Source: a virus
Taxonomy: Duplodnaviria > Heunggongvirae > Uroviricota > Caudoviricetes
Virus record (IMG/VR): IMGVR_UViG_2526164690_000014
Length of the DNA: 10,106 nt
Direction: 5' to 3' (one strand)
How positions within the stretch are numbered: position 1 is the stretch's first letter; each line of letters begins with the position of its first letter. Made by a program: the position numbers and the translations under genes. Positions 3,040 through 8,801 of this stretch are shown piece by piece. The notes beneath the pieces are model-generated. The model ran no database searches, had not been told where the DNA came from, and saw only the letters and a program-made list of their open reading frames with translations.

Positions 3040-3085
3040 CTGATGAATCCCCTAATGATTTTGGTAAAAATCATTAAGTTAAGGT

Positions 3086-3154
3086 GGATACACATCTTGT
3101 CATATGATCAAATGGTTTCGCGAAAAATCAATAATCAGACAACAAGATGTGCGA
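3086..3154 (-). ncRNA. IS10 RNA-OUT antisense RNA (approximate ends)
   Basis: Placed from established IS10 biology (pOUT transcript antisense to the transposase 5' end). In the sequence, CACATCTTGT (3091-3100) and ACAAGATGTG (3142-3151) form the expected inverted repeat spanning the transposase start codon region. Confidence 0.45.
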
Positions 3155-4355
3155 ACTCGATATTTTACACGACTCTCTTTACCAATTCTGCCCCGAATTA
3201 CACTTAAAACGACTCAACAGCTTAACGTTGGCTTGCCACGCATTACTTGACTGTAAAACTCTCACTCTTACCGAACTTGGCCGTAACCTGCCAACCAAAG
3301 CGAGAACAAAACATAACATCAAACGAATCGACCGATTGTTAGGTAATCGTCACCTCCACAAAGAGCGACTCGCTGTATACCGTTGGCATGCTAGCTTTAT
3401 CTGTTCGGGCAATACGATGCCCATTGTACTTGTTGACTGGTCTGATATTCGTGAGCAAAAACGACTTATGGTATTGCGAGCTTCAGTCGCACTACACGGT
3501 CGTTCTGTTACTCTTTATGAGAAAGCGTTCCCGCTTTCAGAGCAATGTTCAAAGAAAGCTCATGACCAATTTCTAGCCGACCTTGCGAGCATTCTACCGA
3601 GTAACACCACACCGCTCATTGTCAGTGATGCTGGCTTTAAAGTGCCATGGTATAAATCCGTTGAGAAGCTGGGTTGGTACTGGTTAAGTCGAGTAAGAGG
3701 AAAAGTACAATATGCAGACCTAGGAGCGGAAAACTGGAAACCTATCAGCAACTTACATGATATGTCATCTAGTCACTCAAAGACTTTAGGCTATAAGAGG
3801 CTGACTAAAAGCAATCCAATCTCATGCCAAATTCTATTGTATAAATCTCGCTCTAAAGGCCGAAAAAATCAGCGCTCGACACGGACTCATTGTCACCACC
3901 CGTCACCTAAAATCTACTCAGCGTCGGCAAAGGAGCCATGGGTTCTAGCAACTAACTTACCTGTTGAAATTCGAACACCCAAACAACTTGTTAATATCTA
4001 TTCGAAGCGAATGCAGATTGAAGAAACCTTCCGAGACTTGAAAAGTCCTGCCTACGGACTAGGCCTACGCCATAGCCGAACGAGCAGCTCAGAGCGTTTT
4101 GATATCATGCTGCTAATCGCCCTGATGCTTCAACTAACATGTTGGCTTGCGGGCGTTCATGCTCAGAAACAAGGTTGGGACAAGCACTTCCAGGCCAACA
4201 CAGTCAGAAATCGAAACGTACTCTCAACAGTTCGCTTAGGCATGGAAGTTTTGCGGCATTCTGGCTACACAATAACAAGGGAAGACTTACTCGTGGCTGC
4301 AACCCTACTAGCTCAAAATTTATTCACACATGGTTACGCTTTGGGGAAATTATGA
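3147..4355 (+). CDS. tnp: IS10 transposase (402 aa)
   Basis: ORF MCELDILHDSLYQFCPELHLKRLNSLTLACHALLDCKTLTLTELGRNLPTKARTKHNIKRIDRLLGNRHLHKERLAVYRWHASF... matches the Tn10/IS10 transposase as recalled, inside the IS10 inverted repeats. Confidence 0.95.
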   Translation: MCELDILHDSLYQFCPELHLKRLNSLTLACHALLDCKTLTLTELGRNLPTKARTKHNIKRIDRLLGNRHLHKERLAVYRWHASFICSGNTMPIVLVDWSDIREQKRLMVLRASVALHGRSVTLYEKAFPLSEQCSKKAHDQFLADLASILPSNTTPLIVSDAGFKVPWYKSVEKLGWYWLSRVRGKVQYADLGAENWKPISNLHDMSSSHSKTLGYKRLTKSNPISCQILLYKSRSKGRKNQRSTRTHCHHPSPKIYSASAKEPWVLATNLPVEIRTPKQLVNIYSKRMQIEETFRDLKSPAYGLGLRHSRTSSSERFDIMLLIALMLQLTCWLAGVHAQKQGWDKHFQANTVRNRNVLSTVRLGMEVLRHSGYTITREDLLVAATLLAQNLFTHGYALGKL

Positions 4356-4368
4356 GGGGATCTCTCAG

Positions 4369-5344: not shown

Positions 5345-5995
5345 ATGAATACACAACTGATGGGTGAGCGTATTCGCGCTCGCAGAAAAGAACTCAAGAT
5401 TAGGCAGGCTGCCCTTGGCAAGATGGTTGGCGTGTCTAATGTTGCTATTTCCCAATGGGAGCGATCTGAAACTGAGCCCAATGGCGAAAACCTATTGGCC
5501 TTAGCCAAGGCTTTGCAGTGCTCCCCTGATTACCTGTTGAAAGGAGAGGATAGTCTTTCAAACATTGCCTATCACAGCAGGCATGATCCAAGAGGTTCGT
5601 ATCCTCTAATTAGTTGGGTAAGCGCAGGATGTTGGATGGAAGCTGTAGAGCCATATCATAGGCGTGCAATAGATAACTGGTACGACACAACGGTAGATTG
5701 TTCTGAAGACTCTTTTTGGCTCGACGTTAAAGGTGATTCAATGACTGCCCCGGCAGGACTGAGTATTCCTGAAGGGATGATTATTCTCGTCGACCCAGAA
5801 GTCGAACCACGTAATGGAAAGCTGGTAGTCGCCAAACTTGAAGGAGAAAACGAGGCGACATTCAAAAAGTTAGTTATTGATGCCGGTAGAAAATTCCTGA
5901 AACCACTCAATCCACAATACCCAATGATTGAAATCAATGGGAACTGTAAAATCATTGGCGTTGTCGTTGATGCCAAGCTAGCAAACCTTCCTTAA
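5345..5995 (+). CDS. c2: Prophage repressor, P22 C2 / phage 21 cI type (216 aa)
   Basis: MNTQLMGERIRARRKELKIRQAALGKMVGVSNVAISQWERSETEPNGENLLALAKALQCSPDYLLKG... with a helix-turn-helix N-domain and LexA-like C-domain (…GDSMTAPAGLSIPEGMIILVD…KLEGENEATFKKL…). Near-identical to P22 C2 as recalled. No Shine-Dalgarno, as expected for a PRM transcript. Confidence 0.9.
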   Translation: MNTQLMGERIRARRKELKIRQAALGKMVGVSNVAISQWERSETEPNGENLLALAKALQCSPDYLLKGEDSLSNIAYHSRHDPRGSYPLISWVSAGCWMEAVEPYHRRAIDNWYDTTVDCSEDSFWLDVKGDSMTAPAGLSIPEGMIILVDPEVEPRNGKLVVAKLEGENEATFKKLVIDAGRKFLKPLNPQYPMIEINGNCKIIGVVVDAKLANLP

Positions 5996-6017
5996 GGGGC
6001 TTTCGCCCCTTTTTTAT
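5995..6017 (+). terminator. Rho-independent terminator after the repressor gene
   Basis: Stem AGGGGC/GCCCCT with loop TTTC followed by TTTTTTATTT, directly after the repressor stop codon. Confidence 0.7.
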
Positions 6018-6029
6018 TTCCCGTTAAAA

Positions 6030-6113
6030 ATCAAAGACAAACTAAATTCGCGCCCATAAAATTAAGTTTTCTTCAAAAATGCACTTGACCAAAAAATTAA
6101 GAGGTCTTAATTT
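6030..6113 (+). promoter_or_regulatory. pL promoter with OL operators
   Basis: -35 TTGACC (6085-6090), 17-bp spacer, -10 TAATTT (6108-6113). Operator-like 7-4-7 site AATTAAG-AGGT-CTTAATT (6095-6112) overlaps the promoter; weaker sites at about 6060-6077 and 6030-6047. Confidence 0.6.
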
Positions 6114-6159
6114 TAAGCCGTCAGCAGGAGGCTGGAAGCCAAACGGAACAGATTGGCAG

Positions 6160-6199
6160 GCTCTTTAACATCGACGAACTCTCAACCTAACCGTTGAGA
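6160..6199 (+). promoter_or_regulatory. nutL-like site (boxA plus boxB hairpin)
   Basis: boxA-like GCTCTTTAACA (6160-6170) followed by a 7-bp stem hairpin TCTCAAC-ctaacc-GTTGAGA (6180-6199), between pL and N. Confidence 0.6.
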
Positions 6200-6309
6200 C
6201 CAGAACTTGAGTGGTTTTGGGGATGGCGCGAATTGCAGCTGCAAGACAGCGATCGAGAAGATAAGCACCTCGACGCGTCATGCGCCAAAGCCACTTAAAG
6301 GAGACCATC

Positions 6310-6615
6310 ATGGTAACCATTGTCTGGAAAGAATCCAAAGGTACGGCAAAAAGCCGCTACAAAGCTCGCAGAGCAGAACTTATTGCCGAGCGACGCAGTA
6401 ATGAAGCACTGGCGCGAAAAATTGCGCTAAAGCTCTCTGGTTGCGTCAGAGCAGACAAAGCAGCATCACTAGGAAGCCTTTGCTGCAAGAAGAAAGAAGA
6501 AGTTGTTCGAAAAAATAGAAGTATTTATTACAAGGATTCAAACCCATTAGGAAACAAAATACATGCAGTCCAAAAAATAAAATTGTACAGTAAACTACCG
6601 TACGGTGCTTATTGA
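6310..6615 (+). CDS. N: Antitermination protein N, phage 21 type (101 aa)
   Basis: AAGGAGA Shine-Dalgarno 5 nt before the ATG at 6310. N-terminal arginine-rich motif MVTIVWKESKGTAKSRYKARRAELIAERR matches the phage 21 N RNA-binding peptide as recalled. First gene downstream of pL/nutL. Confidence 0.8.
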   Translation: MVTIVWKESKGTAKSRYKARRAELIAERRSNEALARKIALKLSGCVRADKAASLGSLCCKKKEEVVRKNRSIYYKDSNPLGNKIHAVQKIKLYSKLPYGAY

Positions 6616-6617
6616 GT

Positions 6618-6956
6618 ATGCTTATGGTGAAAAAGACTATTTATGTTAATCCTGACCGCGGACAAAACAGAAAAGTATCTGATAGAGGTCTTACATCTCG
6701 AGACAGGAGGAGAATAGCGAGATGGGAAAAGAGGATAGCATATGCATTAAAAAACGGTGTAACACCTGGATTTAATGCTATAGATGACGGTCCTGAATAT
6801 AAGATTAATGAAGACCCAATGGACAAAGTTGACAAAGCATTAGCAACACCATTTCCTCGCGATGTCGAAAAAATTGAAGATGAAAAATATGAGGATGTAA
6901 TGCACAGAGTTGTTAATCACGCTCACCAACGAAATCCAAATAAAAAATGGTCATAG
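6618..6956 (+). CDS. Hypothetical protein (112 aa; basic N-terminal half, acidic C-terminal half), function unknown
   Basis: ORF starts 3 nt after the N stop (ATG at 6618 or 6624; weak Shine-Dalgarno, possible translational coupling). AT-rich, with many AGA/AGG/ATA codons. Translation MLMVKKTIYVNPDRGQNRKVSDRGLTSRDRRRIARWEKRIAYALKNG...EDEKYEDVMHRVVNHAHQRNPNKKWS has no homolog I recognise. Followed directly by an intrinsic terminator. Confidence 0.5.
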   Translation: MLMVKKTIYVNPDRGQNRKVSDRGLTSRDRRRIARWEKRIAYALKNGVTPGFNAIDDGPEYKINEDPMDKVDKALATPFPRDVEKIEDEKYEDVMHRVVNHAHQRNPNKKWS

Positions 6957-6977
6957 CCCACTTCGGTGGGTTTTTTA
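6957..6977 (+). terminator. Rho-independent terminator
   Basis: Stem CCCAC/GTGGG with loop TTCG followed by TTTTTTATT, immediately after the stop codon at 6954-6956. Confidence 0.7.
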
Positions 6978-7089
6978 TTGGCTGAACTAACCTAATTTAT
7001 TACAGCAAGCCACGCAGTGAAATGGGTGTGACTTGTGTTGGTCGCCAGAAAATGAAATTAGGCAGCAAACCACTTATTTGAGGTGAGAT

Positions 7090-7560
7090 ATGACAAAATC
7101 ATGGAGCGTACCTTTTCCTGAATCAGAAACTGAACATGATGGAATGCCTGTTTTCTGGAGATTCCAGGCGACAGTTGAAGAAGATGGGATAAAAATATTC
7201 GCACTTCAATATATAGCTTTTCATCAGACAGAGCATTATGCATGGTTGGTTCCTGCGCATTGGATTGTTAATTTTAAACCAGCACCAAATCAGTGGTTAC
7301 AGGAATGGAAACAAAGGAGAAATAGATATGCAATTAAGAAAGTAGCAAAAAATGCAGAAAGATCTTTTGCATTCCCAACGAAGAAACTTGCTATTGAAAG
7401 TTTATTGCGCCGGAAGAAATACCATTTAATGAGAATAAAACAAGATTTGGCTGTTGTATCAACTCTTGTTGATGGGATGAAAAATATTGATACATCAACA
7501 CCAGATATTGAATATAACTTTGGACACAACCAAGAAACAGAAAATTGGGTATTTTATTAG
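7090..7560 (+). CDS. Hypothetical protein (156 aa), function unknown; stand-alone accessory gene
   Basis: Strong Shine-Dalgarno GAGGTGA 3 nt before the ATG. AT-rich with rare AGA/AGG/ATA codons. Translation MTKSWSVPFPESETEHDGMPVFWRFQATVEEDGIKIFALQYIAFHQTEHYAWLVPAHWIVNFKPAPNQWLQEWKQRRNRYAIKK... has no transmembrane segment and no motif I recognise. Bracketed by intrinsic terminators upstream (6957-6977) and downstream (7664-7691). Confidence 0.6.
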   Translation: MTKSWSVPFPESETEHDGMPVFWRFQATVEEDGIKIFALQYIAFHQTEHYAWLVPAHWIVNFKPAPNQWLQEWKQRRNRYAIKKVAKNAERSFAFPTKKLAIESLLRRKKYHLMRIKQDLAVVSTLVDGMKNIDTSTPDIEYNFGHNQETENWVFY

Positions 7561-7620
7561 TACGAGTAAGCACTGTGTATTCATTCCAACGAGTGAATAC
7601 ACGGAGCAATGTCGCTCGTA
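7561..7620 (+). promoter_or_regulatory. Extended imperfect palindrome immediately after the 7090..7560 stop codon
   Basis: TACGAG...GTGTATTCA-ttccaacgag-TGAATACAC...CTCGTA: a 9-bp perfect inner stem (7575-7583 / 7594-7602) plus a 6-bp outer stem (7561-7566 / 7615-7620). No T-run follows, so it may be a protein-binding site, RNA processing/stability element or rho-dependent signal rather than an intrinsic terminator. Confidence 0.4.
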
Positions 7621-7663
7621 ACTAAACAGGAGCCGACTTGTTCTGATTATTGGAAATCTTCTT

Positions 7664-7691
7664 TGCCCTCTAATGTGAGGGCGATTTTTTT
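7664..7691 (+). terminator. Rho-independent terminator upstream of ea10
   Basis: Stem GCCCTC/GAGGGC with loop TAATGT followed by GATTTTTTTCT. Confidence 0.65.
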
Positions 7692-7709
7692 CTGTGAGGA
7701 TATGAACAG

Positions 7710-8079
7710 ATGTCAAACATCAAAAAATACATCATTGATTACGACTGGAAAACATCAATAGAAATTGAAATCGACCATGACTTAATGACAGAGGAAAAAC
7801 TTACACCAGATTAATAATTTCTGGTCAGACTCTGAATACCGACTCAATAAACACGGCTCTGTATTAAATGCTGTATTAATCATGCTGGCGCAACATGCTC
7901 TGCTTATAGCAATTTCAAGCGACTTAAATGCATATGGTGTTGTGTGTGAGTTCGACTGGAATGATGGAAATGGTCAGGAAGGATGGCCTCCAATGGATGG
8001 TAGCGAAGGAATAAGAATTACCGATATCGATACATCAGGAATATTTGATCCAGATGATATGACTATCAAAGCCGCCTGA
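7710..8079 (+). pseudogene. ea10: Ea10-like protein (lambda ea10/ssb region), interrupted by a +1 frameshift near 7803-7805
   Basis: N-terminal 34 codons MSNIKKYIIDYDWKTSIEIEIDHDLMTEEKLTPD end at a TAA (7812-7814); the remainder ...NNFWSDSEYRLNKHGSVLNAVLIMLAQHALLIAISSDLNAYGVVCEFDWNDGNGQEGWPPMDGSEGIRITDIDTSGIFDPDDMTIKAA continues in the +1 frame. Together they give about 122 aa matching lambda Ea10 as recalled; one extra base in cttAcacc. Confidence 0.65.
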
Positions 8080-8153
8080 GCGCGGCGTTACCGCATACCA
8101 ATTACGCTTCACTCGAGGTCGTTTTTCGTTATGTAATAAATAAGGAGCACACC

Positions 8154-8318
8154 ATGCAATATGCCATTGCAGGGTGGCCTGTTGCTGGCTGCCCTTCCGA
8201 ATCTTTACTTGAACGAATTACCCGTAAATTACGTGACGGATGGAAACGCCTTATCGACATACTTAATCAGCCAGGAGTCCCGAAAAATGGATCAAACAAT
8301 TATGGCTATCCAGACTAA
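8154..8318 (+). CDS. cIII: CIII protein (FtsH/HflB inhibitor, 54 aa)
   Basis: AAGGAG Shine-Dalgarno; [54 protein letters not shown] matches lambda CIII as recalled. Below the size cut-off of the supplied ORF track. Confidence 0.85.
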   Translation: MQYAIAGWPVAGCPSESLLERITRKLRDGWKRLIDILNQPGVPKNGSNNYGYPD

Positions 8319-8508
8319 ATTCACTATCGCCACTTTTATTGGCGATGAAAAGATGTTTCGTGAGGCCGTCGACGCTTATAAAAAATGGATATTAATACAG
8401 AAACTGAGATCAAGCAAAAGCATTCACTACCCCCTTTCCTGTTTTCCTAATCAGCCTGGCATTTCGCGGGCGATATTTTCACAGCCATTTTCAGGAGTTC
8501 AGCCATGA
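8287..8508 (+). CDS. kil: Kil-like host-killing protein, 73 codons here (lambda Kil is 47 aa as I recall)
   Basis: ATG at 8287 inside the cIII 3' end; [47 protein letters not shown] matches lambda Kil, then the frame runs 26 codons further to the gam start. At the lambda kil stop position (about 8428-8430) the sequence reads TAC. The long-form Gam frame from ATG 8385 hits a TAA at 8448-8450. Confidence 0.55.
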
Positions 8509-8801
8509 ACGCTTATTACATTCAGGATCGTCTTGAGGCTCAGAGCTGGGCGCGTCACTACCAGCAGATCGCCCGTGAAGAGAAAGAGGCAGAACTGGCA
8601 GACGACATGGAAAAAGGCCTGCCCCAGCACCTGTTTGAATCGCTATGCATCGATCATTTGCAACGCCACGGGGCCAGCAAAAAAGCCATTACCCGTGCGT
8701 TTGATGACGATGTTGAGTTTCAGGAACGCATGGCAGAACACATCCGGTACATGGTTGAAACCATTGCTCACCACCAGGTTGATATTGATTCAGAGGTATA
8801 A
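8505..8801 (+). CDS. gam: Gam (RecBCD inhibitor), short form, 98 aa
   Basis: AGGAG Shine-Dalgarno; [60 protein letters not shown]... matches lambda GamS as recalled. Confidence 0.9.

Follow-up and report, generated by a model that had tools for sequence, protein, structure and literature searches.

What is the function of a gene of 156 codons that lambdoid phages carry in the slot taken up by sieB and ral in lambda, and on what terms does it reside there? We addressed this question in a stretch of 10,106 nucleotides from the virus record IMGVR_UViG_2526164690_000014 (hereafter the window), which sequence and family searches identified as the early region of a lambdoid, Stx-phage-like Escherichia coli prophage, its plus strand running in the pL direction. 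The gene, named orf156 here, had been singled out in a preliminary description, made from the letters of the window without database searches, as a recently acquired moron that forms a stand-alone cassette together with a palindrome and two terminators. Our comparisons point to a different history, in which orf156 is an old cargo gene of a hypervariable slot, the palindrome and the second terminator belong to the phage backbone, and the Orf156 protein may act in the conflict between phage and host soon after infection.

Coding constraint and distribution of orf156

The open reading frame (ORF) of orf156 begins with ATG, and the sequence GAGGTGAT (to 7087), two bases 5′ of this start codon, is complementary to the 3′ end of 16S rRNA over 8 nt, which bears out the strong ribosome-binding site of the preliminary description. 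The product is a soluble protein of 18.6 kDa with a pI of 9.1. We estimate that an open frame of 156 codons would arise by chance at this composition with a frequency of roughly 1e-6 per start. The protein matched the PHROG 1636 profile over its whole length (E 2.7e-112, residues 1-156 on positions 1-156 of 156), and the annotated function of this family is "unknown". A single residue separates it from HK97 gp45, its sequence is identical to those of 933W ST933Wp19/L0079 and phi24B vb_24B_11c, and H-19B carries the corresponding ORF, unannotated, downstream of N. We identified orf156 in 598 of 5,426 complete E. coli genomes (about 11%), with up to four copies per genome, and the wider query 6900-7800 matched 332 phage records. 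Relatives at 56-85% identity were confined to a few other Enterobacterales, namely Pectobacterium, Brenneria, Rosenbergiella, Cronobacter and Symbiopectobacterium. These results show that orf156 is old and widespread, from HK97, H-19B and 933W to 11% of the complete E. coli genomes and to other Enterobacterales at 56-85% identity, and the proposal of a recent acquisition found no support. The family has been catalogued for about 25 years, and neither the gene nor the small RNA (sRNA) of the window described below is new as a sequence.

Comparison of the homologues pointed to strong purifying selection, with a ratio of nonsynonymous to synonymous substitution rates (dN/dS) of 0.05-0.19 where synonymous sites were unsaturated. 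Among homologues at 56-85% identity, the proportion of nonsynonymous differences (pN) was 0.09-0.28 as against a proportion of synonymous differences (pS) of 0.37-0.9, and in the distant pairs pS reached 0.8-0.9, which is saturated, with pN at just 0.10-0.28. The same Orf156 protein was encoded by many distinct DNA sequences among 80 viral contigs. These were the best 80 of 260, each 100% identical in the Orf156 protein, and because the set was chosen for identity we take this result as simply supportive. Taken together, the coding constraint seen in these alignments indicates that orf156 is a genuine conserved protein-coding gene, and coding conservation across relatives, on which the preliminary description had staked its proposal, held.

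No account of function was found in the literature for HK97 gp45, L0079, WP_000167595, phrog_1636 or vb_24B_11c. Searches of Pfam, NCBIfam, PADLOC and PDB sequences returned nothing for the Orf156 protein or for 68 diverse relatives, in agreement with the earlier remark that no family could be assigned to it; in PADLOC-DB v2 the only match was a chance-level one to Cas1_II (E 0.018), and nothing was consistent among the 68 relatives. When 1.84 billion representative proteins were searched with a profile, 87 matched at E <= 0.001, mostly single-domain proteins of 130-160 aa, a few of them being fragments or low-complexity artefacts. Aligned members of this wider family also matched PHROGs 13631, 25384 and 28215, all annotated as function unknown. 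Domain fusions were absent among the orf156 relatives found, and two candidates for such fusions (P0059 and P0081) were rejected as low-complexity artefacts.

orf156 has a GC content of 0.352 (0.25 at third codon positions), which is low when compared with cI, gam, bet and P, and to this extent it is AT-rich as first described. However, the contrast does not extend to its immediate neighbours: low GC is regional across 6450-7950 (N 0.415, the Nun-like gene 0.375, ea10 0.43), and rare codons make up a smaller share of orf156 (7.1%) than of N (10.9%) and the Nun-like gene (11.6%).

Exchange of cargo between N and the PreS block

The 5′ flank of orf156 is what is left of a lambda/21-type N gene, a 3′ fragment whose end reads ...KPRSEMGVTCVGRQKMKLGSKPLI / ...GVTCVGRQKMKLGSKPLI up to the stop, and the window's own N sits 400 nt further upstream. 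The ribosome-binding site of orf156 overlaps the stop codon of this remnant. In other carriers an intact lambda/21-type N, ending ...GVTCVGRQKMKLGSKPLI, stops 8 nt 5′ of the orf156 ATG, and the 933W/HK97-type N ends 59 nt before it. Judged from these sequences, the N remnant of the window marks a recombination joint. In BLAST alignment of the 80 viral contigs, the homology breakpoints clustered at 6989-7074 on the left and at 7688-7706 on the right.

We found that the same flanks enclose different genes in related phages. The left flank of Sakai Sp5 equals the window from 7028 through the ATG with one base different, and its right flank equals the window from AGCACTGTG (7570) onward with single-base differences only; between the two lies an unrelated acidic ORF of 83 aa, ECs_1180 (PHROG 2471, unknown function; L098 4721-4972). 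An ORF of this type was also present in VT2-Sakai and mEp234 (mEp234_034), and it represents a second uncharacterised slot cargo that is worth testing beside orf156. Other cargo of the slot includes a 40-aa ORF in 2B8, annotated as an antirestriction protein, and a 60-aa ORF in mEpX1. When the flanks alone were used as the query, inserts of about 380 to 674 nt were identified in different phages, and the 3′ flank was found without orf156 in lambda, SfI and HK629/630. Sakai Sp5, mEp234 and 2B8 have both flanks in common with the window, while lambda shares just the 3′ flank. The window at 7570-8600 is 97.6% identical to lambda 34045-33017, and this lambda stretch starts 42 nt past the ral stop, indicating that lambda fills the slot with sieB-orf28-ral. 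The suggestion that orf156 occupies the sieB/ral slot is thus borne out by the lambda alignment, and the survey of slot contents that had been proposed revealed different cargo in Sakai Sp5, mEp234, 2B8, mEpX1 and lambda. The genes 3′ of orf156 in other carriers vary as well and include ea10, cIII, a homologue of P22 gp17 (PF17420) and several unknown genes. The alignments therefore indicate that orf156 is cargo of a hypervariable slot, with the end of N as its 5′ edge and the hairpin/PreS/tL2a block as its 3′ edge. Since orf156 is missing from lambda and Sakai Sp5 on the same backbone, it is dispensable and swappable.

The copies in HK97 (gp45), 933W (L0079), phi24B (vb_24B_11c) and H-19B have the same length and the same place, between N on one side and the hairpin, PreS and terminator on the other. 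Unlike these copies, that of the window is separated from N by a Nun-like gene and its terminator. Accordingly, of the position between N and ea10 given in the preliminary description, ea10 stands as the downstream gene, while the gene directly upstream is the Nun-like gene and not N. In lambda, sieB-orf28-ral lies in the same slot, after N and immediately 5′ of the hairpin/PreS/tL2a block and ea10, and both this cluster and orf156 are non-essential accessory cargo of the pL operon. No link between the Orf156 protein and either SieB or Ral emerged from PHROGs, Pfam or NCBIfam (the proteins were not aligned pairwise), and Ral has 66 aa as against the 156 aa of Orf156.

A moron in the sense of Hendrix and co-workers is reportedly a promoter, a gene and a terminator set between backbone genes and expressed from the prophage. 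orf156 resembles such an element in that it is a discrete insert between backbone genes with alternative or empty states in relatives, in that its GC content is below that of much of the genome, and in that a terminator follows. Its insertion site is differently filled in Sakai Sp5, mEp234, 2B8 and lambda, which is the pattern of a moron insertion. Unlike a moron, however, orf156 has no promoter of its own that we could find, and its expression would be lytic, from pL. The terminator that follows orf156 differs among carriers: in the window it is the backbone tL2a/PreS terminator, and in others a separate one composed of GCCGCATAGTCGGCC and a T-run is located right after the orf156 stop.

The downstream palindrome belongs to the backbone PreS block

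Between 7555 and 7700, 146 nt fold with an energy of -51.5 kcal/mol (z = -4.8 versus shuffles), and an extended palindrome within this stretch had been assigned to the orf156 cassette. We found that the inner hairpin, with its 17-nt arms and 4-nt loop, is conserved. The outer stem, 7561-7566 paired with 7620-7625, was rejected: the commonest allele, TACGAA, breaks a pair, and the support is consequently for the inner hairpin only.

In lambda, the RNA first named LPR1 and renamed PreS is encoded between ral and ea10 and has tL2a as its 3′ end (bioRxiv 10.1101/2024.10.31.621285). It is about 88 nt long, is processed to about 68 nt and is bound by Hfq (bioRxiv 10.1101/2024.10.31.621285; PMC12197685). 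PreS becomes detectable at 10 min after induction and was not detected in lysogens (bioRxiv 10.1101/2024.10.31.621285), and it up-regulates host dnaN, aiding phage replication (bioRxiv 10.1101/2024.10.31.621285; PMC12197685). The window carries a PreS homologue directly upstream of ea10, whose start we placed by the reported length of about 88 nt and whose identity to lambda lies within the range of at least 92% by which those authors recognise LPR1. Two of the substitutions relative to lambda are in the terminator loop and one is at the end of the T-run. Over the 122 nt from 7570, 119 positions are identical to lambda, and the core 7570-7662 is identical in the window, lambda, HK97 and 933W. 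The tL2a stem-loop at 7663-7684 has 8 pairs, 5 of them G-C, and is followed by seven T residues (7685-7691); it resembles the lambda PreS/tL2a in its place 5′ of ea10 and in having a GC-rich stem and then poly-U. The two loci differ in what lies upstream of PreS, which is ral in lambda and orf156 in the window. The hairpin/PreS block was also found in phages without orf156, and Rfam 15 gave no match over the hairpin or the PreS region.

Based on these identities, the palindrome and the second terminator are the lambda backbone element PreS/tL2a and not orf156's own. Of the stand-alone cassette proposed for 7090-7691, orf156 itself is indeed discrete and exchangeable, but the palindrome and the second terminator form a separate backbone element. 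Given that the downstream element is PreS, the 3′ end of the orf156 mRNA and PreS form one transcript region. The hairpin abuts the inferred 5′ end of PreS and could be a processing determinant. On the minus strand, a promoter-like site (7579-7551; TACACA, a 17-nt spacer and TAAAAT, a weak match of 9/12) lies inside the hairpin and faces antisense into the 3′ end of orf156; it is also present in 933W.

Probable transcription of orf156 with N

Two intrinsic terminators around orf156 had been described, and both were confirmed, namely that of the Nun-like gene and tL2a, each a stem-loop followed by a T run. In 6000-8500 we counted five terminator-like sites, as against 2.0 +/- 1.6 in shuffles. 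The terminator of the Nun-like gene is the upstream boundary in the window and has no counterpart in 933W and HK97, in which orf156 comes directly after N. A crude consensus scan, which could miss a weak or non-canonical promoter, detected no sigma-70-like site on the plus strand in 6973-7090; this, like the age of the family, speaks against the recent moron. In most carriers the space 5′ of orf156 is N coding sequence, with orf156 starting 8-59 nt past N, and across at least four N types the gene starts 3-59 nt after N.

The terminators of other carriers were examined in the same manner. The first convincing predicted intrinsic terminator comes after orf156 in HK97, in 933W and in two divergent lambdoid contigs, whose Orf156 proteins are 83% and 71% identical to that of the window, and it is either PreS/tL2a or the separate GCCGCATAGTCGGCC + T-run terminator. 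The sole earlier site between pL and PreS/tL2a in 933W is a weak 5-bp stem inside N with no T tract, and in contig L086 the first predicted intrinsic terminator past the pL region is directly 3′ of orf156. A terminator was present 3′ of orf156 in nearly all contexts. The GCCGCATAGTCGGCC + T-run terminator follows the orf156 stop directly in some carriers (L029, L056, L086, L087, L037 and L038), a related sequence lies after ral in lambda and after ECs_1180 in Sakai, and two loci carry both this terminator and the PreS block. In HK97, 933W and the two contigs, no ORF other than N and orf156 lies ahead of this first convincing terminator, so that Orf156 would there be made with N at the very start of lytic growth. 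This layout suggests that orf156 is transcribed from pL, and that N and Orf156 would be the two proteins of the immediate-early pL transcript in HK97, 933W and the divergent contigs. In the window, the terminator of the Nun-like gene adds one terminator before orf156, and expression should therefore depend more on N antitermination.

Every relative that we examined lies co-directionally in a block of early, recombination or replication genes. Relatives were located immediately ahead of xis/int in Pectobacterium, in Brenneria and in a distant gammaproteobacterial prophage, among genes for methylase, RdgC, YqaJ and SSB in other phages, and, in Pseudomonas and Vibrio phages, in the vicinity of RecE or replication genes; in Pseudomonas phage 8P, the relative is found among unannotated small ORFs near the genome end. 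A ParB-like protein was considered as a partner, as the relative is the first gene before a ParB-like gene in one phage type, and was rejected since this arrangement is not conserved elsewhere.

Predicted structure of the Orf156 protein

An AlphaFold2 model of the Orf156 protein, made with 68 diverse relatives aligned, reached a predicted local distance difference test score (pLDDT) of 95.6 and a predicted template modelling score (pTM) of 0.82, whereas an earlier model from 22 close homologues had been poor (pLDDT 62). The model has strands at 19-30, 33-46, 50-55 and 83-86, short helices at 56-59 and 66-74, and a helix of 33 residues at 98-130, and its ordered C-terminal tail bears an invariant FGHNxETxxWxF motif. 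The Orf156 protein is thus predicted to be a single soluble alpha/beta domain with a three-stranded beta-meander, two short helices, a beta-hairpin, a long helix and a tail. We found no solved structural relative. The search of BFVD gave 12 structure matches at E <= 0.001, all of them uncharacterised phage proteins, with hosts that include Erwinia, Achromobacter, Delftia, Sinorhizobium, Rhizobium, Tenacibaculum and Cellulophaga. Several of the phages with such structural relatives, including Erwinia phiEa2809, Achromobacter phiAxp-3 and Delftia RG-2014, are phages that we take to be virulent.

Only G33, T47, K87 and A101 are near-invariant across the superfamily, so there is no conserved catalytic constellation, which argues against an enzyme. 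Residues 61-130, 17 of them Lys/Arg, make up a conserved basic central segment (pI 10.9), while both termini are acidic. No transmembrane segment was detected in the protein, the maximum 19-residue Kyte-Doolittle score being 0.56. A likeness to the AP2 / lambda Int-arm DNA-binding domain in the motif R-F-A-F-x-T-K-x-x-A was rejected by hhalign profile comparison.

Genomic setting of the window

The closest match to the window is the chromosome of the O111:H11 strain 88.0502, with 99.7% identity, and the features of the window are collected in Table 1. The arginine-rich motif of the window N is presumably of the phage 21 type. The start of the Nun-like gene overlaps the stop of this N, and the prophage carries both N and a Nun-like transcription-termination gene of the exclusion type, behind which lies a strong terminator (6955-6972); HK022 has Nun in place of N. 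The N/Nun-like stretch was also matched by Stx1 phages and by PA28, in which the copy is annotated Nun-like. After orf156, the plus strand carries ea10, cIII, kil, gam, bet and exo in this order. The alignment showed that the ea10 frame is broken near 7803 by one extra A when compared with the closest genome. The minus strand carries cro, cII, O split by IS10, P, ren, ninB, a methylase gene and ninE. IS10 is complete and contains the ISVsa5 transposase gene (3147-4355) and RNA-OUT (3085-3154; Rfam E 3e-20); with O interrupted by IS10, the prophage is probably replication-defective. The cIII thermoregulator RNA is intact at 8141-8199 (Rfam RF01804, 88.5 bits), and this RNA and RNA-OUT were the only Rfam matches in the window. 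Over its 10 kb, the window differs from the closest genome by 12 single-base indels, which could be sequencing errors or real decay.

Table 1. Features identified in the window and their positions
Feature	Position	Strand	Remarks
IS10, complete, in replication gene O	3040-4368		9-bp target duplication AACTTGGCT on both sides
P22 c2-like repressor gene	5345-5995	+	Family search
N gene	about 6310-6615	+	PHROG 271; family search
Nun-like gene	6612-6956	+	PHROG 5632, E 4.8e-71 (PHROG search); product ends ...NPNKKWS
Intrinsic terminator after the Nun-like gene	6955-6979	+	Stem-loop 6955-6972 AGCCCACTTCGGTGGGTT, then TTTTATT
3′-end remnant of lambda/21-type N gene	6989-7081	+	Conserved 5′ flank of the slot
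Shine-Dalgarno sequence GAGGTGA	7080-7086	+	Also serves the alternative cargo ORF of Sakai Sp5
orf156	7090-7560	+	156 aa, ATG start; homologue of HK97 gp45, 933W L0079 and phi24B vb_24B_11c
Conserved hairpin	7570-7607	+	Arms 7570-7586 and 7591-7607, 4-nt loop; 5′ of the PreS start and overlapping it
PreS (LPR1) sRNA homologue	7604-7691	+	85/88 (96.6%) identical to lambda 34011-33924; ends at tL2a
ea10	7710-8079	+	DUF2528, Pfam E 5.5e-23 on the 3′ part; downstream neighbour of orf156

Discussion

We propose that Orf156 is a non-enzymatic early binding protein in phage-host conflict, serving in counter-defence or host takeover, and we give this proposal a probability of about 40%. Early in infection, Orf156 would act by binding, and not by catalysis, on a nucleic acid or on an acidic protein of the host or of a competitor, and would thereby assist lytic development in counter-defence or host takeover. 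The conservation pattern, the charge distribution and the lack of domain fusions favour a binding role, while the predicted early expression from pL, the spread of relatives over phages of many host genera, dispensability, the slot common to sieB and ral, and the presence of gp17 nearby in other carriers favour a part in phage-host conflict. The neighbouring lambdoid recombination locus has been described as a hotspot both for anti-defence genes and for triggers of defence (bioRxiv 10.64898/2026.07.10.737580), which supports the concept and is not evidence on orf156 itself.

Several considerations weigh against this proposal. A role in defence or counter-defence is deduced from position, and the slot argument is guilt by location, most of the other slot cargo being uncharacterised too. 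The basic surface of the model would fit the phage's own DNA transactions equally well. On the side of expression, the crude scan may have missed a promoter within the N remnant that is weak or non-canonical, the terminator predictions cover intrinsic sites, so that Rho-dependent termination might still separate orf156 from N, and in the present prophage, with O disrupted by IS10, orf156 may be silent cargo.

Orf156 might alternatively have an accessory part in what the phage does with its own DNA or RNA, as an architectural or regulatory partner in recombination, excision or replication or as a modulator of N/Nus-dependent transcription, rather than be aimed at host immunity; this is a possible explanation, although we regard it as unlikely on balance. 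Relatives lie directly 5′ of xis/int in three lineages (Pectobacterium, Brenneria and the distant gammaproteobacterial prophage), and beside RecE/YqaJ, RecT, SSB or replication-initiator genes in diverse phages, yet there is no link to any one recombinase, integrase or N type. The tight coupling to N in lambdoid phages agrees with such a factor, whereas the absence of orf156 from lambda and Sakai Sp5 marks it as dispensable and swappable. Likewise, the conserved basic central segment would suit this role, but the profile comparison with the AP2 and Int-arm domains was negative.

A bolder form of the counter-defence proposal is that Orf156 is the founding member of a structurally novel superfamily (PHROGs 1636, 13631, 25384 and 28215) that neutralises bacterial immunity or is sensed by it, the N/PreS junction then being a dedicated counter-defence swap site whose cargo is expressed with N before other phage genes. 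The range of the superfamily takes in temperate phages and phages of many host genera in Proteobacteria and Bacteroidota. As a whole we consider this form doubtful.

It is improbable that orf156 is a moron which is expressed from the repressed prophage and guards the lysogen by superinfection exclusion or abortive infection in the manner of lambda SieB. The gene occupies the sieB slot, but SieB is a membrane protein and the Orf156 protein, unlike SieB, lacks a transmembrane segment. In the window the AT-rich orf156 follows a Nun-like exclusion gene; however, PADLOC had no match for its product or for the 68 relatives, and the phages with structural relatives span many host genera, some of these phages being presumably virulent. 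The terminators on both sides in the window would suit a self-contained moron, but no promoter-like site was found upstream, the upstream sequence is mostly that of N with orf156 following after 8-59 nt, and the downstream terminator belongs to PreS/tL2a, with PreS undetected in lambda lysogens (bioRxiv 10.1101/2024.10.31.621285). Given the predicted expression from pL and the relatives in phages of many host genera, defence expressed in the lysogen is the less likely half of the defence or counter-defence role suggested in the preliminary description.

That orf156 is non-functional, as a chance frame or a decaying remnant in a prophage damaged by IS10 in O, the ea10 frameshift and the 12 indels, is effectively excluded, since the frame is intact, many DNA sequences encode one protein (in the set selected for identity, hence as support), dN/dS is 0.05-0.19, pN is 0.1-0.28 where pS is saturated in distant homologues, the structure is predicted with confidence (pLDDT 95.6), and the coding constraint read from the alignments argues decisively against this reading at the level of the family.

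As a candidate for an early binding protein in counter-defence or host takeover, orf156 has practical value. What had been taken for the palindrome and terminator of a cassette is now re-identified as the recently described PreS sRNA. orf156 is tractable, having a confident fold with no solved structural neighbour, and it is widespread: the model phage HK97 has it, as do the two Shiga-toxin phages 933W and phi24B, and so do about 11% of complete E. coli genomes. Its place in the sieB/ral slot is suggestive, and in most carriers examined it is apparently co-transcribed with N from the very start of infection. Taken together, these properties make orf156 a cheap and well-defined target for anti-defence and host-takeover screens.

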